Virus record (IMG/VR): IMGVR_UViG_3300025838_000032
Coordinates: 1-64,000 of that record
Origin: a virus
Lineage: Duplodnaviria; Caudoviricetes
Reading direction: 5' to 3' (one strand)
DNA length: 64,000 bases
The translations under genes were made by a program, and so were the position numbers. Below, one piece after another: positions 1-21,046 of the stretch. The notes under the pieces were generated by a model that worked only from the letters and a program-made list of their open reading frames with translations, did not search any database and was not told the DNA's origin. Numbering within the stretch: the stretch's first letter is position 1; every line of letters begins with the position of its first letter.

Positions 1-9
1 CTAAATCTG

Positions 10-77
10 TGCAAGATTCTGCATTATTGCGAAGTATGCAGGATTCTGCACTATACTGAGTAGTGCGAGATTCTGCA
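10..77. repeat. Three copies of TGC(A/G)(A/G)GATTCTGCA at an exact 27-bp period
   Basis: Copies at 10-23, 37-50 and 64-77; near-palindromic TGCA-N6-TGCA. May continue left of the window. Confidence 0.7.
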
Positions 78-285
78 CTCTTAGAGATCTTGGGAAGGGA
101 CCTGACGATGCTGATTAAGACCACACGCCAGGGTTGTTCTTCAATAATTCACGACGAGCATCAACTTCTTCCTTGCTTGCCTGCTCCCTCTTCCGAGCCG
201 GTGGTGTGGCTTGCTTCAAAATGCTTTCCATTTTGTTTTCTCCTTGTTTAGGTGGGCCCGTTGATGGTGGAGCCCATACCATTTA

Positions 286-855
286 TTACTTACAGCTGCC
301 CATGTCCAAACTCCATTCTGGATACAGGCTGTTGTTTCTGTGGTAATACCACAATGCCACAGTGCTTTGTTGGTCACCCGTGGCATGGTATGCCTTTGTA
401 GGTAGCCCAGGTATGTTTTCCCTAGCGTATCCCCATATGTATGAGGTGAACTGATACCAACCCCCGCCCTTTGTATCATCAGGCTCAGGTTCATTCATGT
501 GGTTACGACTCTCGTAATACCTAACACACGCAAAGATTTCTTGCACGTGCAAAGTTTGTTTCCACATAGGATCAGTCGCGTCGGGCCATGTGGCTGTTGA
601 GCCGTGTGATCTCGTATCCCATTGCTTCAGCACTGATGGCATTGATGCTGCCCGAATAACTCTGGGCTGTGCCTTACTATACCACTGCAAATTCTTGCTG
701 GTGATATCAGGAGTCATACCTGTCACATACTTAGCAGCAACCTGAGTGGCAGTGGCGGGCACTGGTGTATCAAGTGTATTGCCTGAAGTGTGTAGCATAA
801 CTACTGTGCTTGTGACAAAGGACGCTGAGATACACAACTTTCGCAGTGTACTCAT
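286..855 (-). CDS. Rpf-like / lysozyme-fold lytic transglycosylase with hydrophobic N-terminus
   Basis: SD AAGGAG. C-terminal FACVRYYES...GGGWYQFT..IW...A..ATGDQQ..VA....PEW...C matches the Rpf/transglycosylase pattern (CES..GG.YQF..TW..A..A..QI.VA..W..C), with the catalytic Glu in YES. Confidence 0.65.
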   Translation of the reverse strand: MSTLRKLCISASFVTSTVVMLHTSGNTLDTPVPATATQVAAKYVTGMTPDITSKNLQWYSKAQPRVIRAASMPSVLKQWDTRSHGSTATWPDATDPMWKQTLHVQEIFACVRYYESRNHMNEPEPDDTKGGGWYQFTSYIWGYARENIPGLPTKAYHATGDQQSTVALWYYHRNNSLYPEWSLDMGSCK

Positions 856-956
856 GTACCTTGCTCCTTCCTTTTGTACTGCATTGGGTACTGCTGGGAT
901 TATTCATCCCTTCGGGCCATGGAGTATATAATACTCTCCATGACCCTGAGCAATGA

Positions 957-1286
957 TCAATCACTTTCTTCAATACATTCATGTTCATTAAACCAATTTC
1001 TGGCTGTTCTGAATGTACCGCTTTTTTCTTTTTGACAAATCCCACAATGCACACTGAAATCATGCCATGGCAACCGACGACTATGCTTCCAATTGTATAT
1101 AATAAGTGGAAAATCTAAGTAATCATTATAAGGCAGCTTTAACGTCTTACAATGCTTACACCAAAGTGGCAGTGCCCACAACACTCGTGGGTTCAACCAA
1201 CCTGGCAAATCACGATGGATGTCAAATGTGGTATGACAATTAGGGCAACGATGAGGTTTGTCATTGTTAGCCTTCTTGATTTTCAT
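957..1286 (-). CDS. Hypothetical protein with CxxC pairs (zinc-binding)
   Basis: GGAGG SD before ATG at 1286; CPNC, CKHC and CGIC motifs. Confidence 0.7.
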   Translation of the reverse strand: MKIKKANNDKPHRCPNCHTTFDIHRDLPGWLNPRVLWALPLWCKHCKTLKLPYNDYLDFPLIIYNWKHSRRLPWHDFSVHCGICQKEKSGTFRTARNWFNEHECIEESD

Positions 1287-1443
1287 TTGCCTCCTTTGGT
1301 ATCGCATGACCAGGCACGTTGTGCACAACATGGTTGTGATTGCTCCAGTCTTTACGAGCTTCTTCGTGATCAAATCTCACAAAACCCTTAGCTGGAGGTT
1401 CATGCCATTCACAAATGAACTGATATTTAGTGCGCTTAGCCAC
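1267..1443 (-). CDS. Small hypothetical protein (58 aa, MAKRTKYQFICEWHEPP...)
   Basis: GTG start overlaps the upstream TAG; fills the gap between neighbours; below the ORF-track cutoff. Confidence 0.5.
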   Translation of the reverse strand: MAKRTKYQFICEWHEPPAKGFVRFDHEEARKDWSNHNHVVHNVPGHAIPKEANENQEG

Positions 1444-1526
1444 TAGCGTCTCTTCTTTGAGACATTCTCAACACATATGCAAATGAGCCAAATGATCACA
1501 ACGATGGCAAACCAATTAATCGTCAT
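1443..1526 (-). CDS. 27-aa hydrophobic peptide (MTINWFAIVVIIWLICICVENVSKKRR)
   Basis: Overlaps neighbours at both ends; one TM-like stretch followed by a basic tail. Confidence 0.45.
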   Translation of the reverse strand: MTINWFAIVVIIWLICICVENVSKKRR

Positions 1527-1851
1527 CAACTTGCTTGTTGAGATCAACCACAATAGACTCAATGCGCTCAATCTCATCGATTTGTTCTTGAGTCAATGCC
1601 ACCTTGTCCATCAGCCAACACACTTCACCAATGCTTGTATTCAAGTCATTGTCAACGTCCAAGAATACATAAATCTCTTCTGGAACAATTTCAACAACCT
1701 GATGATAAGGAGAACGAGCAAGACGATTGTCAGCCCATTCTTTCATGGTGAATGTACCATTGTATGAACGACCAAAACTGCTCACCGTCCCTTGATTGAT
1801 ACCAATCACGTACAAATAGTGAACAGGCTGATCGTTTTCAACTGTTGTCAT
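1516..1851 (-). CDS. Hypothetical protein
   Basis: 111-aa ORF with AAGGAG SD, in an operon-like arrangement. Confidence 0.7.
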   Translation of the reverse strand: MTTVENDQPVHYLYVIGINQGTVSSFGRSYNGTFTMKEWADNRLARSPYHQVVEIVPEEIYVFLDVDNDLNTSIGEVCWLMDKVALTQEQIDEIERIESIVVDLNKQVDDD

Positions 1852-1945
1852 TCTTTCTCCTTCTTTTTAGTGGGAAACAATCTCCCGATTGGTAGTCCCA
1901 TCGAGCCACCCAATAATAATCCATTGGGTGACTCTGTGGAAGCAT
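1838..1945 (-). CDS. Small hypothetical protein (35 aa, MLPQSHPMDYYWVARWDY...)
   Basis: ATG overlaps the upstream stop (TGATG); fills the gap. Confidence 0.4.
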   Translation of the reverse strand: MLPQSHPMDYYWVARWDYQSGDCFPLKRRRKNDNS

Positions 1946-2196
1946 CAATCGTACAGCTTGGCCCACACATTGAATGAACTGAGATCAGTCTTTGAATTGC
2001 GGTACTTCTTGATCTTTTCAATGATTTCATCGGCTCTTCCGAACGCTACTTCTAGCATCTCCGGAGTGAAGGGGATGTCTTCGATTTTCTTGATTTCTTC
2101 CCTCATCCTCTCCACAGAGAGCAAGAACGTGCCGGTGATGATTGACAACTCATCATCATCAAAACCAGCATCGATCAATCTCTGAGTGTTCAGCAT
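1945..2196 (-). CDS. Hypothetical protein
   Basis: 83-aa ORF, SD AAAGGA. Confidence 0.7.
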   Translation of the reverse strand: MLNTQRLIDAGFDDDELSIITGTFLLSVERMREEIKKIEDIPFTPEMLEVAFGRADEIIEKIKKYRNSKTDLSSFNVWAKLYD

Positions 2197-2299
2197 TTTA
2201 TTTCCTTTCTTGTTAGAGGCTAATCAATCTCACGATTGTTTAACCCATCGGCCCACCGGATCGCTATAACTCGGTGAGCCTGTGGATCAATCAATCATT
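2197..2299 (-). promoter_or_regulatory. Repeated intergenic cassette, copy A
   Basis: TGATTGATTGA, then a hairpin, then a 25-bp block identical to copy B (2221-2245 = 2707-2731), an A-rich linker and an SD. Confidence 0.75.
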
Positions 2300-2669
2300 G
2301 AATGTATCCATCGCGCGTGGGGCTATACAAATCCACGTGCTGATTGACTAACAGATGGAAGAACGACCAGTTGATCTTCATGGTATGGCAGCTGTTCATG
2401 TGCTTGACTTCCACGAGCTGATAGAACTGACGCTCTTCCTTCTTGATACTGCGGAAGAAATCGAATGCCTGATCCTGTGCGTCGTGTTCAGGTACCCACA
2501 ACTTATTCACAGGAATGGTAACGAGATGCCTCCATGTACCACCGCTGGGGGCAGCTTCAATCTCCACACCGGCGAGCACATCCCACAAGTCAAACATACC
2601 AACGTGGATATGCCGAACTGACCCTGCAGTCTCGTACTTGAAGCACGCACTCTCAATTGCAGTTAACAT
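2295..2669 (-). CDS. Hypothetical protein
   Basis: 124-aa ORF, SD AAGGAG. Confidence 0.7.
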   Translation of the reverse strand: MLTAIESACFKYETAGSVRHIHVGMFDLWDVLAGVEIEAAPSGGTWRHLVTIPVNKLWVPEHDAQDQAFDFFRSIKKEERQFYQLVEVKHMNSCHTMKINWSFFHLLVNQHVDLYSPTRDGYIQ

Positions 2670-2786
2670 ACTTACTCCTTCTTGTTTGGTTTACTTACTA
2701 ATGAGTTAATCAATCTCACGATTGTTTAACCTAGGGGTAGTACGAACTAGTGTTCGGCTCGTACTACCGAAGGTCAATCAATCATT
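2670..2786 (-). promoter_or_regulatory. Repeated intergenic cassette, copy B
   Basis: Same order as copy A; the 13-mer TCAATCAATCATT occurs at 2287-2299 and 2774-2786; hairpin GGTAGTACGA/TCGTACTACC. Confidence 0.75.
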
Positions 2787-3063
2787 TGTCCACACCATAT
2801 AGCCTACGTTGGACAACAATGAATGCCTCGAGCACTCTCAAGAGATTGAGTTCAGCATCGCCTATCGGTCCGAGAGCATCCCAGTCATCATTCATCCATA
2901 GCTTTGTTCTCTCCATCGCTTTCAACAATTGTTCATCGCTGAGAAGAGAAATCATTACGTATGGATGACACTCACTCCTGTACTCACACTCGGGGCATCC
3001 ATCGTGCCAGATCTGGCGAGGATCATACCCCTCCAAATCCTCATGGTATACATGACTACCCAT
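2782..3063 (-). CDS. Hypothetical protein
   Basis: 93-aa ORF, SD AGGAG, HDGCPEC motif. Confidence 0.7.
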   Translation of the reverse strand: MGSHVYHEDLEGYDPRQIWHDGCPECEYRSECHPYVMISLLSDEQLLKAMERTKLWMNDDWDALGPIGDAELNLLRVLEAFIVVQRRLYGVDK

Positions 3064-3097
3064 TTATTTCTCCTTTTCTGTTGCCAATCTCCAGGCT

Positions 3098-3301
3098 TCA
3101 TACTGATTCCACCGTCATCTTCCTGATCTCGTAGTTGTAGACAGGATTGTCCGGGTCTTCCTGGGTGATCTCCTCACAACGTGCTTCAACCCACCAAGCT
3201 ACGCAGTGAGTCTCGATGTAGAACAGCATCCATCCATCCTCGAGAACGTTGCTCGGGCAGGCATTGGCCAGGATCTTGTTCATCGCGTCAGCGGTGCCCA
3301 T
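3098..3301 (-). CDS. Hypothetical protein
   Basis: 67-aa ORF directly after the upstream TAG. Confidence 0.6.
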   Translation of the reverse strand: MGTADAMNKILANACPSNVLEDGWMLFYIETHCVAWWVEARCEEITQEDPDNPVYNYEIRKMTVESV

Positions 3302-3412
3302 CTACTTCACCTTCTTCCAAACGTGAGTCTCCTCGTCCCACACCTGCTTGGGGCGGGGGAAGTCTCGCTGCCCACTGTTCTTGAAGTTACGGTTGTGCTT
3401 CTTACTTGCCAC
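3302..3412 (-). CDS. Small basic protein (36 aa, MASKKHNRNFKNSGQRDFPRPKQVW...)
   Basis: GAGG SD, GTG start, biased codons (aag, aac, ttc, gag). Confidence 0.55.
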   Translation of the reverse strand: MASKKHNRNFKNSGQRDFPRPKQVWDEETHVWKKVK

Positions 3413-3495
3413 TTTTCCTCCTATGTTATCCTACATTTCATTGTAGGCCACGCACTATTGACCTAAGCCAATAGTGAATGGTATACCTTGAAACA

Positions 3496-3912
3496 TTACC
3501 ACGTGGGATCTACCGTGGTCAGAACCACAGTAAAAACTGCATTGTGGAGCTTCATCTCGTAATTCTTGTGTTCCTGAGCATCTTCCCGCTTGATGTAGTG
3601 CCGGTAGAGGGGTATACGACTGCTGTGAGCAAAGCAACTCCAAGCTCCGTAGAACCCCTCGGGGTCGGGGATAACCTCCTCCATCCATTGATCCTTCTCA
3701 CCACGTCTGACCAATTCCTCCTGTCCGGGAGAGAATATATAATTGAACTCATGGCACAGACGGAACGGGTAATCCTCCCACCTCAAGCCCTGATACATCA
3801 ATCGGCTGGAGACGTGAGCAATCACGGCGGGGAAACTGGAAAAGACACCCAAAAAACGGGAATCTATCCTTTCCCCATACTCCTCACCATCTAGGAATAG
3901 AGTGAATAACAT
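3496..3912 (-). CDS. Hypothetical protein
   Basis: ORF with GAAAGGA SD before ATG at 3912. Confidence 0.7.
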   Translation of the reverse strand: MLFTLFLDGEEYGERIDSRFLGVFSSFPAVIAHVSSRLMYQGLRWEDYPFRLCHEFNYIFSPGQEELVRRGEKDQWMEEVIPDPEGFYGAWSCFAHSSRIPLYRHYIKREDAQEHKNYEMKLHNAVFTVVLTTVDPTW

Positions 3913-3949
3913 ATTTTTGTTTCCTTTCTGAGTTATCATGTGTTAGACA

Positions 3950-4660
3950 TACTCAATAGACTCAATAGACTCAATAGAGAGTATAATGAATACTCAATAG
4001 ACTAAATAATGAATAGAGAATAATGAATAAAGAATAATGAATACAGAATAAAGAGTATACAGAGTATGCCCATAATGCTCCACTTTGTACCACTATGCTC
4101 CACAAATAGTAATAGGGTGACATACAGGTGTGAATAAGAGAGAAAATGGAGAACTGGGCTCTCTCTACACTTACATTATACCTGATCAGAATACATTTAT
4201 GAATAAGCTATTATTAGCCTACTTATATCACTTATGACTCATGAATAAGCTATTCTTGCATATTTATGCATTCTCATGAATAAAGCGGAGCAATACCCCC
4301 CTCTGAGGGGTGCCTTTTTGCATATTTATGCATTCTCATCATGAGCCTATGAAATAGCATGCTCAGTAAGCTAGTATTATGCTATAAGTAATCTACATTA
4401 TTGGCCTATAAAAGCGGGGAAAAGCATGAGATATAACTACTTACTCATCAGTAACTCTCAAATTAAGCTAGTATTATGCCTATATTATGCTAATAAATAG
4501 AGTATATAAATAGCTTATAATATATAGCTTAGAGACAGTGTAATACTACTCTTGAATTAAAGGATGAATAAAACTCTCTAATTTATTTTATGTCTAAGTA
4601 GTCTGCTACGCCTCCCCGGATTATATATACTTATTATTACTTATATATATACTCAAGGAG
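3950..4660. repeat. AT-rich non-coding region with several short direct-repeat families
   Basis: ACTCAATAG repeated; AATGAATA and ATGAATAAGCTA repeated; TTGCATATTTATGCATTCTCAT at 4256-4277 and 4318-4339; AAGCTAGTATTATGC twice; no ORF. Confidence 0.75.
4290..4319 (+). terminator. Possible intrinsic terminator
   Basis: Imperfect GC stem (GCA..CCCC/GGGGTGC) followed by TTTTT. Confidence 0.3.
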
Positions 4661-4674
4661 GAATAGCCTAGCAC

Positions 4675-4977
4675 TTAGCTAAGAGCTTCCCGCGTTATCT
4701 CATCTAATGATGACTTGGGAAAGAGGACGAAGGATACCTTCTTCACGCCGTGCTTCTTGTGTTGGAGAAGGGCGCTCCCGCCCCAGTAGAGCTTCCATCC
4801 CTCTTCGGGAAGGTCCATCCACTCTTCCAGACAGTTGAGAGCCTGAGAGAGAGACGTGAACGTCTGGGACATGATGCTCCCCTTGCGCCTGCGCAGGAAT
4901 TTCTTCTCATCCACGTAGACGTAGAAGATGTCATCTTCCCAGAGATCAATCTCCTCTTGAATGTCTTTAATGGTCAT
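4675..4977 (-). CDS. Hypothetical protein
   Basis: 100-aa ORF, SD AAAGGA. Confidence 0.7.
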   Translation of the reverse strand: MTIKDIQEEIDLWEDDIFYVYVDEKKFLRRRKGSIMSQTFTSLSQALNCLEEWMDLPEEGWKLYWGGSALLQHKKHGVKKVSFVLFPKSSLDEITREALS

Positions 4978-5124
4978 TGGTACATTCCTTTCTTTCTTTC
5001 TTATTGATTTGAACTAATGTCTCCCGACATAGTCCCACACATTCCATTCGATGGGACACACGTATAACCTGTGATGTGTGGGTGGGCATTTTAACGTCAT
5101 ACCCAGGACGTGTACTACGGGGTG
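4978..5124 (-). promoter_or_regulatory. Structured intergenic element ending in a GGGA-tetraloop hairpin
   Basis: Minus strand: CCCACACAT/ATGTGTGGG stem enclosing two small hairpins, then ATGTC-GGGA-GACAT (5017-5030), an A-rich linker and an SD. Confidence 0.55.
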
Positions 5125-5895
5125 CTACTCCTGCGACTCAGTCGCCGCCGCAGGGGACTCCGCCTTGATGGCCTTGAAGACGTTCAAGAACAGAGCCTGC
5201 TGGTCCTCGCAGATGGACTCGACGAACGCCTGGTCCATGTCGTTGAGGAGCTCAACGTAGCGGTCCACCACGCCAGTGGCGTAGATGCGGTTCTGCAGGT
5301 CGTCGTACACCGAAGTGACGCCGAGTGCGACCGGGACACGCTTCCCGTTCTTCAAGGTGTAGAACTGCTGAGCAGCCCTGTCCTTGACGAACAGCTTGAG
5401 CTTGCGCTGAGCACCATTCTTGCGCTCGAGCCCCGACCACGGGCTGAAGACACCAGCCGTGACGAAGTGGTAGCGACGCAGAACCTCGAAGTACTGACGA
5501 CCGTTGCCGTCCGTCAGGAGCTCCGAGTTGATCTGCAGCTGCTTCCGAGCCTTGGAGTAGCGCCCAGCGTACACCAACGCACGCGTCACGATTGACGAAG
5601 ACTTGATGATCTTCGTGACCTCGCTGACGTGCTGACCGTACTGCAGGTCGGTGGTCGTGAAGATGTCGAACGTACGACCGATGTCGTAGTTGTTCTCCTT
5701 CCGTGCCCTTCCCTGCGCCGACCCCAACACCTGCAACACGGAGATGCCTCCGAGTGCGAGGAGCTGCGTGGAGTCCACGAGCATGTCGTGTTCCGCGCTG
5801 GCCGTCTCTGAGTCGATTCCGAAGGCAGTGGACGCGATGGTCCGTGCCTCTTCCTCGCTCATGAGGTCGTCGGTGATGATGTTGAACTGTGACAT
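5125..5895 (-). CDS. Hypothetical protein, probably highly expressed
   Basis: About 256-aa ORF; SD GAAAGGTG before MSQF; strongly C/G-ending codons. Confidence 0.8.
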   Translation of the reverse strand: MSQFNIITDDLMSEEEARTIASTAFGIDSETASAEHDMLVDSTQLLALGGISVLQVLGSAQGRARKENNYDIGRTFDIFTTTDLQYGQHVSEVTKIIKSSSIVTRALVYAGRYSKARKQLQINSELLTDGNGRQYFEVLRRYHFVTAGVFSPWSGLERKNGAQRKLKLFVKDRAAQQFYTLKNGKRVPVALGVTSVYDDLQNRIYATGVVDRYVELLNDMDQAFVESICEDQQALFLNVFKAIKAESPAAATESQE

Positions 5896-5968
5896 AATGC
5901 CACCTTTCATTGTTTGTTTACATCAGTTCCGCTGATGTGCCGGAATGTACCACATATGTGATACATCG

Positions 5969-6023
5969 TGCTCCAGGGTAGACTCGAACCACCAACTACT
6001 CCACCAACTGCTGGATCTGGAGC
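5969..6023 (-). ncRNA. tRNA-like element lacking the anticodon arm
   Basis: Acceptor GCTCCAG/CTGGAGC plus A; D-like arm TCCA-GCAGTTGG-TGGA; T-arm GGTGG-TTCGAGT-CTACC; only a GTAGTT linker where the anticodon arm should be. Confidence 0.6.
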
Positions 6024-6037
6024 GACCCACTGCGGTA

Positions 6038-6238
6038 CTACTTGCTCATGATCTCGATGAGGTCCTTCTTCTCACGACCGAATCGTCCCACGAACGCGCG
6101 ACGGTACTGACGTGCCGTTGCCTTGTTGTACACGATGTGACCCTTGTCGTCCCTCGTGACCTTCGCAATCGTGGTCCTGAGGTACGGCTTGGCGGGAATG
6201 CCCGCCGAGATGACACCGTGCACCTGAACATCTGCCAT
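6038..6238 (-). CDS. Small basic hypothetical protein
   Basis: 66-aa ORF, SD AAGGAG, biased codons. Confidence 0.75.
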   Translation of the reverse strand: MADVQVHGVISAGIPAKPYLRTTIAKVTRDDKGHIVYNKATARQYRRAFVGRFGREKKDLIEIMSK

Positions 6239-6330
6239 AATAGGCTCCTTACTTGGTTGTTATTGTGCTAATGTCTCACGACATGGCACGCCCCACTCAC
6301 GGGGAGAGTATGAGTGAGGAATGCCCTGCA
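6239..6330 (-). promoter_or_regulatory. Structured intergenic element ending in a GTGA-tetraloop hairpin
   Basis: Long hairpin GCATTCCTCACTCA/TGAGTGGGGCGTGC, then ATGTC-GTGA-GACAT (6271-6284). The 17-mer 6268-6284 matches 5014-5030 at 16 of 17 positions. Confidence 0.55.
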
Positions 6331-7073
6331 TTGAGACTCTTACCGAGTCTTGCTGCTAGGTGATCTCGGCCTACGACGAGGGCTTGTCTTCCTCGATGAC
6401 GTTGACCGACTTGACGACGACATGGGCCATGCAGGGTTGGGGAATGTCCCCCTGTAGAGTGGCTTACTGTTGGTCGTCAGCTTGGGTAGGTTCATGATCT
6501 TTCACCTCCTTTCCTTACTAAAGTCGGACCATTCGATCACGGCTCCACGCACAATCACATTGGCATGATGTTCCATTGCGTAGTCACTGGGCCTTGTTGC
6601 GTCTATTGCAGCAACACGCTAACATGTGCATGGAGTGTTGTAACCAAAGATTCAATCAACAGTGCAACTATTATCGCATTCAGTCGCTCTGTGATTGTCT
6701 TGACTTACTGATTTGGTATGCGTTATCGTCAAGAAGTTCATAATCTTTCCCTTTTCTTGCTTTCAAACACGATCTAAGGCTTATCCTAGGATGTTACCTC
6801 AACATGAAATGCTAAGTGTATAATACAGATCCCCAGATACTAGTGAAATGTATATTTACTACTAATACAATAGACTAATATAATAGGGGTCCCATTATAT
6901 AGGGAGAAAGTGACTTTAAAAAATAGCGGGGCCCCCCCTTGGCCATTTTGAAATACTCTGTGCTATAATCAACATATAATGCGCCACTTCATCCTGGACT
7001 CAGATAGTGTAATAGCCCGTTGATTCTGAAGTAGGCAATAGAGAGTCAAGTGCGTATCTGCGGGAGAATAATC

Positions 7074-7298
7074 ATGAATTGGGACTACCGGTATTCTCAT
7101 CAAGAGATACAGTCTCCGGAGGAGGATGAAGCCACTCTGGGCCATCTCACCTCCGTTCAACATAACACGATGAATAAAGAGTTGTACCAACCCACCCGCA
7201 AAAATATCGTGGAATTGATGAAACTCCTGGGCCCCCAGGGATTGACGCGGGAGCATAGACTCCTGCATCTTCTCGCCCAGGATCATACTCACATCTAA
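7074..7298 (+). CDS. Hypothetical protein (MNWDYRYS...)
   Basis: GGAG SD before ATG at 7074. Confidence 0.6.
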   Translation: MNWDYRYSHQEIQSPEEDEATLGHLTSVQHNTMNKELYQPTRKNIVELMKLLGPQGLTREHRLLHLLAQDHTHI

Positions 7299-7338
7299 TT
7301 CTCTCTATTAATAAACTCTATTAATAAATAGGAATTAT

Positions 7339-7410
7339 AAATCTCTATCATGTATTATGTACTATGTATTGAGAATCAGAAATCTCTATCATGTATTGAG
7401 AATCAGAAAT
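7339..7410. repeat. Overlapping direct repeats in an AT-rich spacer
   Basis: AAATCTCTATCATGTATT at 7339 and 7380; ATGTATTGAGAATCAGAAAT at 7364 and 7391 (27 bp apart). Confidence 0.65.
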
Positions 7411-7470
7411 TCGGTAGTTAGAAGTAAATTAAACTAACAGTTGTACACAAACAAACATAAGGTTGTCCGC

Positions 7471-8760
7471 GTGAAATTCAATTCAGCCAAGAAGAAGACG
7501 GAGAATAGGGTCCCCGCCGCTCCGGGGATTGGGGTTAATTACCAGCCCGGTACTGGGTACGTCAGTCTTGACGTAGACCCCGAGAACCAGCTCGTTGGGA
7601 ACGCCGTAAAGAACGCTGCGGGCGTCTACCTGAAGAAGCACCGAGAGGCTCATGGCCCAGATGCTGAACCGAGCGAAGACGCTCAGAGGCTTTTTGGTAT
7701 TGTCAAGCACCCACAGACGGGTGAATGGCATCACGACCCGGCGTACGCCGCTATCCGGCACACGAATACTCTCGCTGACTATATGGAGCTGCCCCTGGTC
7801 TCTAAGACGTGGGGGAGGCATCCTAATGCCCCGAAGAATGTTGTTCTCGGTAATGGTATACGAACGCCCAGTATGCCAGTCGGTTATGACGAGAATGGCG
7901 AAGGCGTTATGGCCGGTAGCTATAAATGGTCGAATGGTAAGAAGGACCTGGCCAAACCCCTCGAACTGATTGGGACAGCGGACGCATTGCGTCGTCATGC
8001 TTACAGAGATCTTGTCAACAAAGGCGTTACTGACAAGGGAAAATACTGGGATCGTCTTAAGGGTCTAACCCACCTAGTGCACGGTCGTAAGGTGACCGAT
8101 AAGGATCCGCTCCCAGAGAATGAGACTGAGCGTGGCAGCTGGCACAGCCTGGGTGAGAATGGAGAACCCATGCATCTCCACCTCCACGTGCAACACGTTG
8201 TCCACAATATGGCCAATAATTACGACATCGATGAGCAGCGTCTCCCCAAGGGGCCAGATGGTTTAGACGATCAAGACGCTCTCGAGCATGCTAAGAACAT
8301 GTTAGATGACGCTAGGACATCCCGTTTTACCATGTGCAACTGCCCGCACTGTGCCATTAATCTTTCTACTGAGCCAGCGAGCAGTGTTTGGGATACCCAG
8401 CATCACGACGCTGCCGCTAGCAGCAAGGATCCGCTCGTAAGAGAAGCATATTTCCATGAAAATTCCTTCCCAATGGGTAAGGATGATCAAATCGGGAAAA
8501 TGTCTGACCTTGGAGAGGTCGGAAAGCGGTGCCACCACCGGATTTTCTGGTCGAATAACGACGGGTCCTACGTCAACGGGAATAAAGACAGAAGAGTATA
8601 TAACGAATCTCAGGAATTAATCAATCATATGGTTAAAATGCATCGGGAGGCGGGCGAACACCAGCAGAATACGCCGCCGACGATGCTCCATCCCTTCACG
8701 GGTCGGCCAATCGAGGACGAGCTGGGGCTCAGCGCCTTGGCCGAAGGTGTTCTTGACTGA
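7471..8760 (+). CDS. Hypothetical protein (MKFNSAKKK...)
   Basis: Long ORF; GTG at 7471 after AAGG is the likely start; His-rich, with CNCPHC. Confidence 0.75.
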   Translation: MKFNSAKKKTENRVPAAPGIGVNYQPGTGYVSLDVDPENQLVGNAVKNAAGVYLKKHREAHGPDAEPSEDAQRLFGIVKHPQTGEWHHDPAYAAIRHTNTLADYMELPLVSKTWGRHPNAPKNVVLGNGIRTPSMPVGYDENGEGVMAGSYKWSNGKKDLAKPLELIGTADALRRHAYRDLVNKGVTDKGKYWDRLKGLTHLVHGRKVTDKDPLPENETERGSWHSLGENGEPMHLHLHVQHVVHNMANNYDIDEQRLPKGPDGLDDQDALEHAKNMLDDARTSRFTMCNCPHCAINLSTEPASSVWDTQHHDAAASSKDPLVREAYFHENSFPMGKDDQIGKMSDLGEVGKRCHHRIFWSNNDGSYVNGNKDRRVYNESQELINHMVKMHREAGEHQQNTPPTMLHPFTGRPIEDELGLSALAEGVLD

Positions 8761-8801
8761 GGAATGTTACTAAATTGTAACAAAAATATCCTCTTTACCC
8801 C

Positions 8802-8830
8802 TTGACAAGAAAAAAATCGCTATATATATT
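8802..8830 (+). promoter_or_regulatory. Sigma70/SigA-type promoter
   Basis: TTGACA-17 bp-TATATT upstream of the ORF at 8849. Confidence 0.75.
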
Positions 8831-8848
8831 ATAAATATAAGGAAAATA

Positions 8849-9256
8849 ATGACTAAAGATTGTCATTGTAATCATTGTTTATCACTTAAAGATAACAATA
8901 ATCTTGATACTAATCAAGACAGGGCTTCTCAAGCCCGCATGCTTAAGGTGAATACTGACAAAATTCAAGTATTAACTGATATAGCTCTCTCTTCAGGTAA
9001 AATACCTAGTAAAAATAGTAGAAAATTTACCGTATCCCTCTCGGATACGAGTGATGATAACGATTTCTCCATGGAATTTAGCAGAGAAATCAATATTTCC
9101 CTGTTTCAGGAACTTCTCTCTGGCCTTTTTGGCTTCGGTGAACCCGAAAACGATGATTCAGAAGCCCCTTTTGGCCTCGAGGACGAGATCATTATCTTCC
9201 AGAACTTCGAAGAAGTAATAAATTTCCTCAAAAACAAGAATAACAAGGAGGAATAA
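8849..9256 (+). CDS. Hypothetical protein
   Basis: 135-aa ORF with AAGGA SD; N-terminal CHCNHC. Confidence 0.75.
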   Translation: MTKDCHCNHCLSLKDNNNLDTNQDRASQARMLKVNTDKIQVLTDIALSSGKIPSKNSRKFTVSLSDTSDDNDFSMEFSREINISLFQELLSGLFGFGEPENDDSEAPFGLEDEIIIFQNFEEVINFLKNKNNKEE

Positions 9257-10491: not shown

Positions 10492-11220
10492 ATGTCAGAT
10501 CGTATTGTAGGTAAACTAGGCAAACTCGCTCCACGAAGGCCCGAGGGCTTGCACATGCTCGCCTACTATCAGGGCAACCCGTTGCCAGCCGCACCAGAAT
10601 CAGTCTCAGTGCCAACTCTGGATGATTGGGGCATGCTGGGGAATGACCAATACAGCGACTGTACTGTGGCGGGAGCTGCTCACGCAAAAATGGCTCATGC
10701 CACCGTTTTGGGGATCTCAGAGACCTTTCCAACAGAACAGGAAGTAATACAATCGTATCTGACGTATACCAACGGTGCTGACAATGGCGCGGTAGAGGCA
10801 GACCTGTTAAAATACTGGCAAACGAATGAGTTTCTCGGTAAGCAGCTCTATGCGTACGCTCCTACAGACCACGCAGACTTTGATGAGTTAAAAAGCGTCA
10901 TCGCTAGTTTTGGTCTTGCGTATATTGGCATTCAGGTACCAGCTCCAGCGCAAAGTCAATTTATGGCTAACGAACCATGGGATCTTACGGGGACTCCTGC
11001 CGATAATCAGATCGAAGGTGGCCACTGCATCATCCTCGTCGGGTACGATAAAGATTACGCATACTGTATTACGTGGGGGAAAGTGCAGAAGATTACGTGG
11101 AGGTGGCTGCAAAGCTACATGGAGGAGAGCTGGGCTCTCATTACTCCAGAGATCGTACAAAAGGGTCAATACGGGAATATGCGTCTTGATGAACTCACTG
11201 CTGACTTAGGAAAACTATAA
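10492..11220 (+). CDS. Papain-like (C1-type) cysteine peptidase
   Basis: WGMLGNDQYSDCTVAG (catalytic Cys) and GGHCIILVGYD (His)...ITWG; SD AAGGAG before 10492. Confidence 0.7.
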   Translation: MSDRIVGKLGKLAPRRPEGLHMLAYYQGNPLPAAPESVSVPTLDDWGMLGNDQYSDCTVAGAAHAKMAHATVLGISETFPTEQEVIQSYLTYTNGADNGAVEADLLKYWQTNEFLGKQLYAYAPTDHADFDELKSVIASFGLAYIGIQVPAPAQSQFMANEPWDLTGTPADNQIEGGHCIILVGYDKDYAYCITWGKVQKITWRWLQSYMEESWALITPEIVQKGQYGNMRLDELTADLGKL

Positions 11221-12290
11221 TGACAATTCCAAAGAGAACCGATGAAGTGCTTGAAGAACAAAGCAACAGAGTTCGCATTATTGCTAACACTGGCCCAATG
11301 CGTTATAAGACAGGTGGGGTTTTCGCTGGCCTTCTTGTAGAGGCAATGGTTGGAGATGACCGTGTTGGTTACCTTACAGCTGAGAAGCGTGGTAGCACAT
11401 ACGTTATGGATGGCGTTTACGTCGAGCCAGAGTACCGTCAGAATGGCATTGCAACCGATATGGTGCGTAAGGCTCACGAGACTGTTCCTATGACGCCATA
11501 CATCTTGACTGAGAACCAGGTATACCAGTCAGAGATCGGTAAGAAGATTGCTATCAACGAATACCGAATGGTGACTGCAAGCACGATTGTTACTGCTGGG
11601 CCACTTCTTGCAGTACCTGAGTTGCTTGGTGCTGGTGAAGCTATTGCTGGAGCCGGTGAAGCTGCTGCTGGAGCCGGTGAAGCTGCTGCTGGTGCAGAAG
11701 AAACCGGTGGCATGGGTAGCATGATGAAGAACATGCCTTCAATGGGCGGAGGTTCCAAGGGCGATCAACAACAGGGCGATCAACAACAGGGCGATGACCT
11801 CCAGGGCCAACAGACAGTATCCCCTGCCGTGCGAGGTCCTGCTAACCCAATCATTAGCAGTTTTAAAACGATTTCATTCCAACCGATGTTTCCTTCTACT
11901 ACCGTTCCAATGGAGTTGCCATCAATTAAGCCATGGACCATTAATTCTCCGGCAACAAAAGGTTTAGAAAAAGGTTATAGTGTCCAAGCCGAACCAGAAG
12001 TCTCCCGTGAGGAAGAGACAGTTCTTGAGGCTGAGACGAAAGGTTCTAATGGGGATAAGAGCCCTCAATCATCGATTACACCATCTTTGCCAGAACCTGA
12101 GCCTATGGGTACTAAACAAGATAAACAAAAAAGGCAATTTAACTTATCTATCAATTCTCCACAGCCAATTGTTAACGTCTATACACCTGCAAACCCCAGA
12201 TCATCGAGCGCTAATAAATTATTTGAATTAATTATTGAAGATCAAAACAATTTTATTGACAATAGCCCAAAAAGAACGACGTGGGAATAG
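11220..12290 (+). CDS. GNAT acetyltransferase domain fused to a long low-complexity tail
   Basis: VYVEPEYRQNGIATDMVRKA is the acetyl-CoA-binding motif A; AGAGEA and GDQQQ repeats follow. Confidence 0.7.
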   Translation: MTIPKRTDEVLEEQSNRVRIIANTGPMRYKTGGVFAGLLVEAMVGDDRVGYLTAEKRGSTYVMDGVYVEPEYRQNGIATDMVRKAHETVPMTPYILTENQVYQSEIGKKIAINEYRMVTASTIVTAGPLLAVPELLGAGEAIAGAGEAAAGAGEAAAGAEETGGMGSMMKNMPSMGGGSKGDQQQGDQQQGDDLQGQQTVSPAVRGPANPIISSFKTISFQPMFPSTTVPMELPSIKPWTINSPATKGLEKGYSVQAEPEVSREEETVLEAETKGSNGDKSPQSSITPSLPEPEPMGTKQDKQKRQFNLSINSPQPIVNVYTPANPRSSSANKLFELIIEDQNNFIDNSPKRTTWE

Positions 12291-13906: not shown

Positions 13907-14614
13907 ATGAACTACGATAACATTGCAAAAGAAGCCAAACTTGCAGCCGCCGACACTGGCTGGTTTAATGGTACATCTGAGAGCATCCTTACACGTCTTG
14001 ACAGACTTCAGGAGATTCTTGATGGCGCTAGGATGGCTGCTAGTGTGCCGACAGCATCGAACCACGAGCTCGAGAGATACGCTAGCATCATAACTGAACT
14101 TGGCGCGGAGAAAGAGCAGCTCGAAAAGCTGGCTTCAGAATATGTTGAGTTCGACACAGAGGATTATCTCAACAGCCTCCCAGGCGGCACTATTGCCAAA
14201 GAGTACCGCATCAGTTCTGCAGGGACGAGCGACCTAGGCGAAGACGATGGTAGCCTGCTTTATCGTACTGCTTCCTCCATCGAGGGAGAGTACGCCGACG
14301 CTGACTGGATCAACTTTGTAACGGCGGGCGCAGAGATCTGGGTAGAAGATCAGAGTACCCGGCTCCTGGACAGCCAGCTTGACACCCGTGAGGCCGCTGT
14401 CTATTACGTAGAGAAGAAGACTTTCCCGATTTTAGACACCGTAAAGCGTGCTTCTATAATTGATAACTTTGTTGACAACGTAGAGATTTGCCGCAGAGCT
14501 AAGAATGAGGGAACTCATTTCCAGAATGTGAAGAGCGCAAGCGCGAATAAATTGTCAGCCAGCTTTGCCCAAGAAGCCGTTGACTACGCATTTGGTGAGA
14601 ACAACTGGTTCTGA
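13907..14614 (+). CDS. Hypothetical protein
   Basis: 235-aa ORF. Confidence 0.75.
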   Translation: MNYDNIAKEAKLAAADTGWFNGTSESILTRLDRLQEILDGARMAASVPTASNHELERYASIITELGAEKEQLEKLASEYVEFDTEDYLNSLPGGTIAKEYRISSAGTSDLGEDDGSLLYRTASSIEGEYADADWINFVTAGAEIWVEDQSTRLLDSQLDTREAAVYYVEKKTFPILDTVKRASIIDNFVDNVEICRRAKNEGTHFQNVKSASANKLSASFAQEAVDYAFGENNWF

Positions 14615-14615
14615 T

Positions 14616-15113
14616 ATGACCGATCTGCTCGGCTTCCGAACCGTTGGTTCTGTAGAAGATGATACCAAAGAAGAATATAGTCTTATAACTTCTTTGAAGA
14701 AAATGCTTGCTGAAGCATATGTTCTTTATCACACCATCCATGGGTTCCACTGGAATATAAAAGGTAGTGATTTCTACGAATATCACAAATTCTTTGATGA
14801 GATCGTTAGCGATATTTACGATCATATTGATCCAATAGCTGAGAACATAATTAAGTTAGGTGGAGAAGCTCCCTTTGTAATGAGCGATCTCATAAAGTTA
14901 AGTGATATTGAAGAAGTTGGTCTTATTAGTAAGAAAAAGAAAGAGCTATCTGCTAAGTTCTATAGTATGAATGAAGAATATATACAGCACATTAAAGATG
15001 CGTTCAAGATCGCCAATAATAGTAATGAGCAAGGAGTTGCCAACTTTATTGCCGAGCGTATTGACGCCCATCAAAAATGGAACTGGTTCCTAAAAGCATC
15101 TATTGAGGGATAA
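14616..15113 (+). CDS. dps: Dps family ferritin-like DNA-protection protein
   Basis: HGFHWNIKGSDFYEYHKFFDE...DPIAENIIKLGG and C-terminal HQKWNWFL are Dps signatures. Confidence 0.9.
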   Translation: MTDLLGFRTVGSVEDDTKEEYSLITSLKKMLAEAYVLYHTIHGFHWNIKGSDFYEYHKFFDEIVSDIYDHIDPIAENIIKLGGEAPFVMSDLIKLSDIEEVGLISKKKKELSAKFYSMNEEYIQHIKDAFKIANNSNEQGVANFIAERIDAHQKWNWFLKASIEG

Positions 15114-18784: not shown

Positions 18785-18858
18785 GGCCCCATAGCTCAAC
18801 TGGTCAGAGCACCACCCTGTCACGGTGGGGGTTGGGGATTCGAGCTCCCCTGGGGTCG
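18785..18858 (+). tRNA. tRNA-Asp(GTC)
   Basis: Cloverleaf, anticodon loop CTGTCAC, discriminator G, no encoded CCA. Confidence 0.9.
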
Positions 18859-18862
18859 CTAT

Positions 18863-19447
18863 ATGCAAACATTGAAAGAAATATTAGAAGACAATATCGG
18901 ACTTACATGGTTTGCCGAGAACAATGTTGGTACCGACAAAGGTAGTGGTCATCACGGAGAACACAACTACATTGATGGGTTCTACGATAAAGAATTCGCT
19001 AGGTATCAAGACAAAGAAATCTCCCTATTAGAGATCGGTATCTTTGGCGGAGCATCACTAGCTCTCTGGAGTAAATACTTTACAAATGCCAACATTGTTG
19101 GTATAGATATTGCGGACAACGTCCCGGAGAAATACAAGTATCTTGATAGAGTTACTCATGTATTTAAGGACGCATACTCATATGATGTTGCCGAATCTCT
19201 AGGTAATTTTGATATCATCATTGATGACGGCCCCCACACTCTGGATTCAATGATTCAGTGCATCAGACTATATTTTGATAAGATTAATGATGGTGGTATT
19301 CTAGTTATAGAGGATTTACAGGATCCAGCGTGGTTCGATCTTCTTAGAGAGAATGTACCTAACGAATATCAAGACAATATTGAATACATCGATCTTAGAA
19401 AAAATGTCAATAGACATGATGATCTATTGTTCATAGTTCGTAAGTAG
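18863..19447 (+). CDS. Class I SAM-dependent (sugar O-) methyltransferase
   Basis: TDKG...LLEIGIFGGASL...IVGIDI...FDIIIDDGPH. Confidence 0.85.
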   Translation: MQTLKEILEDNIGLTWFAENNVGTDKGSGHHGEHNYIDGFYDKEFARYQDKEISLLEIGIFGGASLALWSKYFTNANIVGIDIADNVPEKYKYLDRVTHVFKDAYSYDVAESLGNFDIIIDDGPHTLDSMIQCIRLYFDKINDGGILVIEDLQDPAWFDLLRENVPNEYQDNIEYIDLRKNVNRHDDLLFIVRK

Positions 19448-19453
19448 TATCAT

Positions 19454-19529
19454 TCTACCCTAGCATAATTGGCAATGCACAAAACTGTTAATTTTGAAAA
19501 TCTCCGTTCGAGTCGGAGGGGTAGAGCCA
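19454..19529 (+). tRNA. tRNA-Asn(GTT)
   Basis: TCTACCC/GGGTAGA acceptor, loop CTGTTAA, CCA end. Confidence 0.88.
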
Positions 19530-19531
19530 GG

Positions 19532-19619
19532 GGAAGCATGGCTGAGAGGCTAAAGGCACCGGTTTGCTAAACCGGCAGCGGTTCGCCGCTCGTAGGTTCG
19601 AATCCTACTGCTTCCGCCA
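19532..19619 (+). tRNA. tRNA-Ser(GCT)
   Basis: Long variable arm, loop TTGCTAA, GCCA end. Confidence 0.92.
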
Positions 19620-19630
19620 TAAATAAAAGG

Positions 19631-20065
19631 ATGATTATGACCACTAGAGTCTATACTGGAGGGACATTCGATATGTTCCATCCTGGCCATGTTAATCTAT
19701 TAAGACGATGCAGAGAAATATCCGGTCCAGACGGTCACGTAACGGTTTCTCTTAACACAGATGAATTTATTGAACAATATAAGGGCAAAAGGCCGGTCTG
19801 TAATTTTACTGAGCGTAGAGATGTGCTTCTGAGCTGTAAATATGTCGATGAAGTCGTGGCGAACATCGGTGGTGTTAATTCTAAGATCTCCGTAGAGCTC
19901 TGTATGCCTGATTATATAGTTATTGGGTCAGACTGGGCCGAAAGGGACTACTACAAGCAAATGGGATTTGATCAGAAGTGGCTTAATGAGCATAATATTG
20001 GGCTCGTCTATGTTCCATATACACCCGGCGTTTCTTCCACTGATATTAAGAAGAGAATGTCTTGA
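19631..20065 (+). CDS. Cytidylyltransferase (TagD / glycerol-3-phosphate CTase-like)
   Basis: GGTFDMFHPGH (HxGH motif), ERRDVLLSCKYVDEV, GSDW, YTPGVSST. Confidence 0.85.
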   Translation: MIMTTRVYTGGTFDMFHPGHVNLLRRCREISGPDGHVTVSLNTDEFIEQYKGKRPVCNFTERRDVLLSCKYVDEVVANIGGVNSKISVELCMPDYIVIGSDWAERDYYKQMGFDQKWLNEHNIGLVYVPYTPGVSSTDIKKRMS

Positions 20066-20610
20066 AAGAACTGATTGTGGTTGCCACTTCTCCTGGCAGG
20101 GAAGAATGGGCTAAAGATTGTTCAGAATCTATAAAAAGACCGCATATGGTTCTAAGTATATACGGTTATGAACTTGGTAAGATCAAGTGGCTTTATGAAA
20201 ACACTAATTTAGATAGATTTGCCATTTTACAAGATAGTGTTGTTATAACAAACCCAGATATTTTTGATAAAATTTGGGATACTCCAGGCAGTATCTGTCT
20301 CCATCACGAAGCACGCCATATGAGCTGCTATCTCGGTGTATACGAAAGAAAAGTCTTAGACAAGATTGATATACCAGTTATAAATACAAAAGATGCATCA
20401 GTATTTAATGAGAGTGCCTGGATAACCAATTATCTACAGGCTGCTGATGAGACTGTTTGCTTTGACACTGACGGATCCTTTGGGGCCATAGAACCTCGTC
20501 ATGGCAGAGACAATCTTATATACTCCAATAGTTTTTTAATAAAATATAGGGGGAATTGGGGGCAGTTACCATTCGACGGGAGTGACCCACAAGACGCAAA
20601 GGAAAAATAA
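20062..20610 (+). CDS. Hypothetical protein, possibly glycosyltransferase-like
   Basis: FAILQDS, YLGVY; sits next to the CTase. Family not certain. Confidence 0.55.
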   Translation: MKELIVVATSPGREEWAKDCSESIKRPHMVLSIYGYELGKIKWLYENTNLDRFAILQDSVVITNPDIFDKIWDTPGSICLHHEARHMSCYLGVYERKVLDKIDIPVINTKDASVFNESAWITNYLQAADETVCFDTDGSFGAIEPRHGRDNLIYSNSFLIKYRGNWGQLPFDGSDPQDAKEK

Positions 20611-20762
20611 TGGACAAAAAAGAGATAAAATTCAATATTCCAATGAGATTATTTGCTAGAATAGAGAGGGTAGCAGATTCTTTAGGATATAATGATGTGG
20701 ATGAATTTATGAGCTATTACATGAGTCTTAATTTCCAAGTTTTTGATACTCCTGAAGAGTAG
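20610..20762 (+). CDS. Small protein, possibly a ribbon-helix-helix DNA binder
   Basis: 50 aa, IKFNIPMRLFARIERVADSLG pattern; TAATG coupling. Confidence 0.45.
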   Translation: MDKKEIKFNIPMRLFARIERVADSLGYNDVDEFMSYYMSLNFQVFDTPEE

Positions 20763-20771
20763 TAGCATAGA

Positions 20772-20842
20772 TCTGGGGTAGTGTAAAGGTAGCACGCAAC
20801 TCTTTGAAAGTTGTAGCCCTCGTTCGACCCGAGGCCCCAGAG
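20772..20842 (+). tRNA. tRNA-Gln(TTG)
   Basis: TCTGGGG/CCCCAGA acceptor, loop CTTTGAA, G73. Confidence 0.85.
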
Positions 20843-20882
20843 CACTGAGAATTGGGGTTCGGTTCCCTATTCCTCAGCAAAT

Positions 20883-20966
20883 CGATGGGTGGCGGAGTGG
20901 CCAAAGGAATCTGGCTGTAAACTAGCTCCTTCGGGTACGGGAGTTCGAATCTCTCTCCATCGACCA
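20883..20966 (+). tRNA. tRNA-Tyr(GTA), atypical
   Basis: Loop CTGTAAA, long variable arm, ACCA end; C1:G72 and an unpaired D-stem. Confidence 0.75.
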
Positions 20967-20967
20967 A

Positions 20968-21046
20968 CCGGGTAGGAGCGACGTTGGTAGTTGCTGGCAT
21001 TCTTATAAAGTGTTGATCCCTGGTTCGATTCCAGGTGCCCGGACCA
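20968..21046 (+). tRNA. tRNA-Ile(TAT), atypical
   Basis: CCGGGTA/TGCCCGG acceptor, loop CTTATAA, T-arm CCTGG-TTCGATT-CCAGG, ACCA end. Confidence 0.75.

Follow-up and report, generated by a model that had tools for sequence, protein, structure and literature searches.

The stretch of DNA analysed here, called the window throughout, comprises the first 64 kb (64,000 nucleotides, nt; GC content 45.6%) of an 83.8-kb IMG/VR record (IMGVR_UViG_3300025838_000032) from an uncultivated freshwater tailed phage. On its minus strand, in the spacer between two early genes, lies a 55-base element (6023..5969) that can be folded like a transfer RNA (tRNA) and in which the anticodon and variable arms are missing. 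We lean towards reading this element as a cis-acting, tRNA-like signal at which ribonuclease P (RNase P) and ribonuclease Z (RNase Z) would cut a multi-gene early message. A processing signal had been proposed, next to a decoy for tRNA-binding defence or stringent-response proteins, in an earlier description made from the letters of the window (the sequence-only reading). Comparison with related phages speaks for the first, through homologues that likewise have no anticodon arm, a cassette confined to the coding strand, and hammerhead ribozymes and tRNAs that take the same slot, whereas the decoy has found no support.

Fold and setting of the element

The element and its surroundings are composed as follows; unless another basis is named, each part is read from the sequence.

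5969..6023, minus: tRNA-like element without anticodon and variable arms (sequence, minimum-free-energy fold, strict scan, model R2)
6023-6017, minus: acceptor stem, 5' strand, GCTCCAG
6016, minus: single A after the 5' strand of the acceptor stem
6015-6012, minus: D-like stem, TCCA
6011-6004, minus: D-like loop GCAGTTGG, 8 nt, with GG at its end
6003-6000, minus: D-like stem, TGGA
5999-5994, minus: linker GTAGTT, 6 nt unpaired, in place of the anticodon and variable arms
5993-5989, minus: T stem, GGTGG
5988-5982, minus: T-loop, TTCGAGT
5981-5977, minus: T stem, CTACC
5976-5970, minus: acceptor stem, 3' strand, CTGGAGC
5969, minus: discriminator A
5966..5968, minus: 3' trailer CGA, within the CGATG that opens the next hairpin (junction recurs in relatives)
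5944..5967, minus: hairpin H2, 10 pairs, loop ATAT, beginning 1 nt past the predicted RNase Z site (RNAfold)
5920..5938, minus: hairpin H3, ACATCAG-CGGAA-CTGATGT, adjoining the ribosome-binding site (conserved in relatives)
5893..5919, minus: A/C-rich linker, Shine-Dalgarno (SD) sequence GGTGG (5904-5900) and likely start codon ATG (5895-5893)
6038..6238, minus: upstream gene, 66 amino acids (aa), with a strong AAGGAG ribosome-binding site (open reading frame, ORF; identical in L018-L020)
5125..5895, minus: downstream gene, 256 aa, function unassigned (conserved in relatives)
6820..6847, minus: candidate sigma-70-like promoter TTCACT-16-TATTAT (consensus scan only)

The acceptor stem is paired in 7 of 7 positions and abuts the T stem, which has 5 base pairs (bp), one of them G-T, and keeps the closing pair G53-C61; the D-like arm adds 4 bp. 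The stretch GGTTCGAGTCT agrees with 10 of the 11 positions of the T-arm motif GGTTCRANYCC. This three-way cloverleaf is both the minimum-free-energy and the centroid fold (-22.9 kcal/mol; z = -2.2, equalled by 8 of 200 shuffles). It presents what bacterial RNase P and RNase Z recognise in their substrates, namely a coaxial acceptor/T-stem stack of 12 bp, a canonical T-loop and a discriminator, and the GG of the D-like loop could form the elbow. Bacterial RNase P reads the 12-bp acceptor/T stack together with the elbow; in precursors without CCA, RNase Z makes its cut behind the discriminator. Both enzymes, as well as the CCA-adding enzyme, accept minihelices made of acceptor and T arm. The sequence-only reading had described a 7-bp acceptor stem, a discriminator A followed by CGA, a T-arm with TTCGAGT, a D-like GG and a gap of 6 nt, and every one of these details holds, as does the double occurrence of the 9-nt AGTTGGTGG within the element, at 6009-6001 and 5997-5989.

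Such a shape is rarely met by chance. A strict scan demanded an acceptor stem paired in 7 of 7 positions, an insert of 0-75 nt, a T stem paired in 5 of 5 positions and abutting the acceptor 3' strand, and a loop T[TG]C[AG]ANN. In the 64-kb window it returned exactly the six tRNAs called by ARAGORN and the tRNA-like element, where chance would give a mean of 0.23 matches per 64 kb (100 first-order Markov sequences with the dinucleotide frequencies of the window). In 475 kb of unrelated viral contigs, the same scan gave one real tRNA, one spurious match with a long insert and no arm-less match; these negative controls came from a leader-hairpin pattern search in viral contigs, the 50 loci of which were nearly all chance matches. 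A relaxed scan (one mismatch, looser loop) gave 44 matches against 40 expected, which is noise, and no further copy in the window can be claimed from it. Assembly collapse at the 9-nt repeat, offered by the sequence-only reading as an alternative, is excluded because the spacer of the element is identical in three independent ENA assemblies (L018-L020).

The spacer is 142 nt long and separates two co-oriented early genes. The stop codon of the 66-aa ORF lies 14 nt upstream of the element, and 73 nt lead from its 3' end to the likely start of the 256-aa ORF, which is placed at 5895 and not at the ATG at 5910 because homologues begin M-S-x-F. Within the minus-strand spacer (5896-6037) a consensus scan listed no promoter-like or terminator-like site, and transcription of the four-gene unit around the element could start from the candidate promoter at 6820..6847. 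Both hairpins of the leader recur: L002 and L013, two loci of relatives, also have a hairpin at the position of H2, with compensating changes (ATGTATC/GGTACAT vs ATGCATC/GATGCAT), and H3 corresponds to a consensus YCAG-CGGNN-CUGR in the leaders of relatives. The four-gene unit (about 4800-6400 in the window) forms a GC-rich island, with 50-61% GC against 45.6% in the window, and its flanks (4000-4700 and 6700-7450) are AT-rich with short direct repeats, such as TTCTGATTCTCAATACAT, found twice near 7350-7410, and runs of ATTCATTA/CTATTGAGT near 3950-4070.

As for the 256-aa protein, the sequence-only reading had spoken of a highly expressed downstream gene, a description for which we find no support; the protein has no recognisable family or fold. 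Relatives carry it with 47-59% identity. It belongs to no Pfam or PHROG family, and neither Foldseek against the PDB (best E 0.03) nor VIA-align wide (best Z 4.5) matched its AlphaFold2 (AF2) model (predicted local distance difference test score, pLDDT, 78.6) to a fold. A language-model atlas placed it only among unnamed viral clusters. Autoregulation, with this protein binding tRNA and the element serving as its tRNA-like operator, is likewise a proposal that finds no support.

Arm-less copies and their cassette in related phages

A BLAST search of 5000-7000 against GenBank phages, in near and distant modes, gave no match. A locus search in viral contigs based on the single protein found no homologue, but alignment-based searches did find homologues of the downstream protein, 34-59% identical to it, among freshwater metagenomes and IMG/VR contigs. 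The most distant of them (L101, L102 and L109; 34-35% identical) carry an element of the form GTCCCAG-CCAGTCGGTGGTGAAGTAT-GGTGG-TTCGAYT-CCAYC-TTGGGAC-G, which has no anticodon arm; its 19-nt insert contains a short D-like hairpin, CCA-GTCGG-TGG, followed by a linker. A covariance model (R2) was built from these three copies alone. Its top match in 165 kb, on both strands, is the window element, over the full length of the model (positions 1-51), with 36.9 bits and E ~6e-7 (the E-values of short-calibrated covariance models being rough), while the real tRNAs of the window score at most 18 bits. The sequence-only reading had suggested looking for homologues that keep the arm-less form, and these three copies, together with the R2 match, supply them. 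Between the window element and that of L101, two pairs are changed on both sides, three show wobble changes and none is broken. In L013, the slot before the homologous 250-aa gene holds a tRNA-like fold of the same shape in which all stem sequences differ from those of the window: an acceptor of 8 bp with one mismatch, TGTC-GAAGTCAGG-GACA, a 3-nt linker, ACGG-TTCAACT-CCGT and A-CGATG.

To judge from its sequence, the element likely arose from a tRNA gene that lost its anticodon arm. At the extreme right of the record (genome 83623-83695 (+), = L103:19623-19695) the phage has a seventh tRNA, tRNA-Lys(UUU), whose acceptor GCTCCTG/CAGGAGC, discriminator A and T-loop TTCGAGT come close to those of the element. 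A Dojkabacteria tRNA-Ile(UAU) shares 24 of the 25 bases of the 3' half. The exact 25-nt 3' half was found neither in viral contigs nor in 185,579 prokaryote genomes/species, and a degenerate T-loop/acceptor pattern met only ordinary tRNAs of several isotypes in prokaryote genomes, giving no clue to the host.

Such a descent could also have ended in a decaying pseudogene, the anticodon arm having been deleted between the AGTTGGTGG repeats and no present function being left. The 9-nt direct repeat coincides with the gap left by the arm, some bacterial tRNAs share the acceptor stem and have nearly the same 3' half, and almost whole cloverleaves lie upstream of the homologous gene in two relatives (L037:875-944 and L010:1044-1113). 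We nevertheless consider a relic very unlikely, for the arm-less form is common to phages whose homologous protein is only 34-35% identical, 12 of 12 core pairs are intact and show compensating changes, the element always stands on the coding strand between genes, and a relic would not hold a perfect stack and T-loop over such divergence. The two cloverleaves themselves reach 55 bits with the Rfam tRNA model, and their anticodon loop is reduced to 5 nt (given by ARAGORN as 'tRNA-???, anticodon ta'). They stand between early genes, in the leader of the homologous gene and further upstream than the slot of the window, and are followed by CGATG or CGGTG, as is the window element. A full tRNA at this place in relatives, together with the lack of a discrete RNA, had been named in the sequence-only reading as what would speak against it. 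The comparison bears this out only in part: two relatives have these near-whole forms at another distance, and other relatives keep arm-less forms.

The arm-less form is also part of a larger family. At least 16 distinct mini tRNA-likes occur in the early regions of relatives, and essentially none in shuffles or in the 475 kb of controls. All are on the coding strand and start 8-40 nt past a stop codon. They include forms of 42-46 nt with an insert of 10-14 nt that always contains GG, a pure minihelix of 32 nt followed by G-CCA, and a four-way fold in which a hairpin of 7 bp with a 4-nt loop replaces the anticodon arm; one member of 45 nt (L015:791-835) scores 24.5 bits with the mascRNA model (gathering threshold 42.5) and 28.2 bits with the tRNA model. 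While the stems vary freely, G53-C61 and the TTCRANY loop are kept in 16 of 16 tabulated members. Acceptor sequences vary from copy to copy across the family, and in two copies that correspond in position (L098:7866 and L099:14599) both bases are changed in 7 of 12 pairs. In an alignment of 11 members fitted to the model, 99.4% of the cells are paired, both partners are changed in 14 of 15 pairs, and the covariation score is 0.71, as against 0.22 in shuffles (reached by 0 of 500) and 0.08-0.17 in slid controls; these numbers lean towards structure because the members were aligned by means of the model, and because the scan picks out stems without mismatch. Structural alignments were made from covariance models and a script because MAFFT was unable to align the 5' acceptor strands of members with unequal inserts. 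A further model (R1), made for minis with 10-nt inserts, is too narrow to reach the window element.

The members of the family stand in a recurrent cassette, which runs from a stop codon over a few bases to the tRNA-like fold, N73, a hairpin 1-3 nt further on (often AYGTC-GNRA-GACRT), an A/C-rich linker, an SD sequence and a start codon. The window element is arranged accordingly, on the coding strand and with a short gap after the stop codon, followed by hairpin, A/C-rich linker and SD sequence; the same cassette also follows a whole tRNA-Gly in L010. The junction N73-CGATG recurs after the tRNA-like folds of L013, L037:875-944 and L045:1321-1387. The CGA of the trailer had been taken as lying one base from CCA, which is literally true, but probably without meaning: CCA is encoded in only 4 or 5 of about 16 members, and CGA is probably the start of the recurring CGATG and not a degenerate CCA.

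Two other hairpins of the window resemble that of the cassette: ATGTC-GTGA-GACAT at 6266-6280 (-) and ATGTC-GGGA-GACAT at 5016-5030 (-). They stand just before the A/C-rich linker and SD sequence of the 66-aa and a 100-aa gene, respectively, and a GNRA hairpin of this kind also follows mini tRNA-likes and a real tRNA in relatives.

Conservation could in principle act on the DNA, if the element marked a hotspot of recombination, were a small repeat that moves, or were left over from an integration site within a tRNA gene. The attachment sites of phages often reproduce tRNA 3' halves, and the element lies in a GC-rich island of four genes flanked by AT-rich repeats. An attachment-site copy has no need of both acceptor halves, however, and both are present; the 25-nt 3' half is absent from the bacterial genomes of 185,579 species; and it is base pairing that is conserved, not sequence, with a strand bias that tracks transcription. 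A DNA-level role therefore seems to us scarcely credible.

Other occupants of the slot and features of the genome

In L022, L037, L007, L043 and L098, hammerhead type II ribozymes replace the tRNA-like fold. The matches reach 27-35 bits (gathering threshold 37) and have complete CUGANGA/GAAA/GUC cores with stems that covary. The near-threshold hammerheads, from Rfam, are the following; they stand between early genes of related phages, immediately 5' of an A/C-rich linker and SD sequence.

L022:661-735, coding strand: hammerhead, near threshold
L037:36-98, coding strand: hammerhead, near threshold
L007:4149-4211, coding strand: hammerhead, near threshold
L043:1028-1104, coding strand: hammerhead, near threshold
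L098:12876-12938, coding strand: hammerhead, near threshold
L101:18709-18633, coding strand: hammerhead, near threshold

The likeness extends to the whole leader, which in L043 consists of hammerhead, hairpin, H3-like hairpin and SD sequence, and in the window of tRNA-like fold, H2, H3 and SD sequence. Rfam models gave no hammerhead or tRNA-like match in the early region of the window itself (1-9000). To our knowledge, the only activity of a hammerhead is cutting its own RNA, and the shared slot therefore points to cleavage as the common function. Taken together at the level of sequence, mini tRNA-likes, anticodon-less cloverleaves, whole tRNAs and hammerheads are a clade-wide set of apparently interchangeable 'punctuation' modules.

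A further motif recurs in long structured leaders of L004, L007, L010, L022, L037 and L043. It has the form GTAACAGGCGG...CCGCACCTG, is often followed by TCCCTCTCAAGGGAGAAAG, sometimes comes immediately after a hammerhead and has no Rfam match.

Several observations weigh against a cutting signal. In place of the U8-N9 of tRNAs, the element has a single linker base, and its T stem includes a G-U pair. Neither the Rfam tRNA model (RF00005, gathering threshold 29 bits) nor the mascRNA-menRNA model (RF01684) matched it on the minus strand at E up to 10. The window holds one element only, its other early spacers using plain hairpins. In the closest relative, L002 (59% protein identity), the copy is degenerate, with the T-loop UGCAAAA and an A-A mismatch in the T stem, and strict tRNA likeness is therefore not indispensable at the slot; in five or six further relatives, a four-way junction unlike a tRNA takes its place. 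Finally, the covariation alignment and the strict scan are both biased towards structure, a bias that is not common to the enrichment, the strand rule or the R2 result.

As regards the models, ARAGORN called no tRNA at the element either, and these non-calls of ARAGORN and the Rfam tRNA model are to be expected because the fold has no anticodon arm. Measured as a canonical tRNA, the element has the acceptor stem with discriminator and the T arm, and lacks the anticodon arm and a score with RF00005. The lone Rfam signal at the element is an antisense match of 21 bits to Plastid-ycf2, a model that also matched the opposite strand of every real tRNA among the loci of relatives. The tRNA-like structures of plant viruses, which have a pseudoknotted acceptor arm and stand at the 3' end of the genome, were considered and rejected: no such model (e.g., Tymo_tRNA-like) matched in Rfam, the acceptor is an ordinary helix closed by both ends, and the element is internal to an operon of a DNA phage.

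The plain hairpins and non-tRNA junctions that other early spacers of the window and many leaders of relatives have in equivalent places, together with L002, which has kept the outer stem and lost the canonical T-loop, would suit a structural RNA that is never cut. In that case, the fold would block 3' exonucleases for the upstream cistron, insulate the translation of neighbouring cistrons or bind a regulator of the phage or the host, and its tRNA likeness would be a legacy. We regard this as rather unlikely, chiefly because it leaves the invariance of the T-loop across the family unexplained: G53-C61 and the TTCRANY loop, kept in all 16 tabulated members, amount to a constraint specific to a T-loop and not to a generic hairpin. 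Moreover, the slot is common to self-cleaving ribozymes.

The four-way junction has a regular form of its own in the leader of the homologue of the 250-aa gene (L015:1300-1450, L024, L026, L029, L033, L028 and L045:375-450). An outer stem of 5 bp (CCCNA/TNGGG) encloses arm 1, with the invariant loop CTATCCA, a variable arm 2, and arm 3, of 7 bp with the loop GTCARA, which makes 12 bp together with the outer stem. The stems covary, and there is no Rfam match.

If the element is indeed cut, cleavage might still be no more than the biogenesis of a mini-tRNA that acts in trans, either by drawing off, as sponge or decoy, one of the host proteins that bind the elbow or acceptor (a defence nuclease, RNase P, the CCA-adding enzyme and EF-Tu are candidates) or as a chargeable minihelix. 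The parts that form the elbow are kept (the T-loop, and GG in the D-like loop or in short inserts), 4 or 5 family members encode CCA, the acceptor stem, discriminator and T-loop resemble those of the phage's own tRNA-Lys(UUU), and a role in trans could coexist with processing. On the other hand, enzymes that recognise the anticodon loop cannot be lured by an element without an anticodon arm, the acceptor stem shows neither G3:U70 nor another known identity mark of minihelices, and the variety of acceptors from copy to copy speaks against one identity read by a protein. What the element has in common with the hammerheads of the same slot is cleavage, not tRNA mimicry. Pfam searches of window ORFs (30 large or neighbouring ORFs and 10 ORFs of the early region) found no tRNA-processing or RNA-repair enzyme, and no phage tRNA enzyme nearby. 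With no specific support for it, an action in trans, like any of the candidate targets, appears quite unlikely, and we return to a signal acting in cis.

Elsewhere in the window, the real tRNA cluster lies at 18785-21046 (+), remote from the element and on the opposite strand, as had been stated before. Four of its six tRNAs encode CCA, those for Asp and Gln being without it, and the cluster is interleaved with genes for a methyltransferase (18863-19447) and a cytidylyltransferase-like protein (19631-20065). The rightward early/middle block includes genes for a ferritin-like domain protein (Pfam E 1e-19; 14565-15113 (+)) and a GNAT acetyltransferase-domain protein (11220-12290 (+)). An ORF of 1171 aa at 30757-34272 (+) carries intein splicing and LAGLIDADG homing-endonuclease domains (Pfam E 1e-11 to 1e-12). 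The tail of the phage may be contractile, to judge from a weak tail-sheath match.

Predicted cuts and comparison with known systems

In the proposed mechanism, RNase P would cut at 6024/6023 and thereby end the upstream 66-aa message, at whose 3' end no strong structure would remain. At the other border, RNase Z or a 3' pathway equivalent to it would cut after A5969, for which the CCA-less trailer CGA is permissive. A mini-tRNA of about 55 nt would be released, and may receive CCA. The message of the 256-aa gene would then start 1 nt ahead of the 10-bp hairpin H2 (5967-5944). Bacterial messages that start no more than a few bases ahead of a hairpin are shielded from decay that depends on the 5' end, and H2 would be such a protector of the downstream message. 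A cut combined with a 5' hairpin would therefore uncouple the stability and expression of the neighbouring cistrons. A more far-reaching proposal joins such punctuation by interchangeable modules to mini-tRNAs that, once excised and provided with CCA, accumulate and act in trans on the tRNA-binding machinery of the host. RNase P or the CCA-adding enzyme might be titrated in this way, for instance, or a defence protein that binds the elbow or acceptor might be soaked up; punctuation and such an action in trans together we consider decidedly doubtful.

If cutting in cis is borne out, this phage clade applies to its early genes the logic of mitochondria and plant t-elements, in that tRNA-shaped signals, swappable with self-cleaving ribozymes, divide messages and set the stability of each piece. 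It would be a layer of phage gene control invisible to genome annotation, which misses such folds because tRNA finders and Rfam do not score them. It would also reveal how tRNA genes of phages can turn into signals for RNA processing and nothing else, and operon engineering would gain compact parts of natural origin. We found no published description of tRNA-like punctuation of phage operons in the open literature, subscription journals lying outside the search.

RNase P is known to cut operon mRNAs and, among phage RNAs, the M3 RNA of phi80 and the precursor of the C4 antisense RNA of P1/P7 (PMC11143913). The M3 and C4 RNAs resemble the window element in being phage RNAs matured by host RNase P via an acceptor-like helix. 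They differ in being single regulatory or stable RNAs, whereas the window element has a canonical T arm and would punctuate an intergenic spacer; no family relation links them to it.

The mascRNA/MEN-beta RNAs (RF01684) offer a small tRNA-like fold that is cut from a long transcript by RNase P and RNase Z and to which CCA is then added. They are products of eukaryotic nuclear long non-coding RNAs, mascRNA has a (poor) anticodon arm, and the window element has no score with RF01684.

In the tRNA punctuation of animal mitochondrial DNA and in the tRNAs of bacterial operons, tRNA-processing enzymes excise the units. The likeness lies in tRNA-shaped units that separate the genes of one transcript; among the relatives, the whole tRNA-Gly of L010 shares the cassette with the mimics. 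The units of those systems are working tRNAs; that of the window cannot decode, as it has no anticodon arm.

Plant mitochondrial t-elements were reportedly described by Hanic-Joyce et al. in 1990. They are tRNA-like folds that define the ends of messenger RNAs through RNase P and RNase Z (PMC1920247), keep the T-arm motif GGTTCRANYCC and the acceptor stem, and adjoin protein genes (PMC1920247; Forner et al. 2007). Like them, the window element is a non-canonical tRNA-like fold with T arm and acceptor, next to protein genes, and it would lie inside a longer transcript. The t-elements are organellar and have mapped RNA ends; the phage element keeps a D-like arm and 10 of 11 motif positions, and has no sequence homology to them. 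The working principle proposed for the phage is already known from organelles, in t-elements and tRNA punctuation, and from mascRNA.

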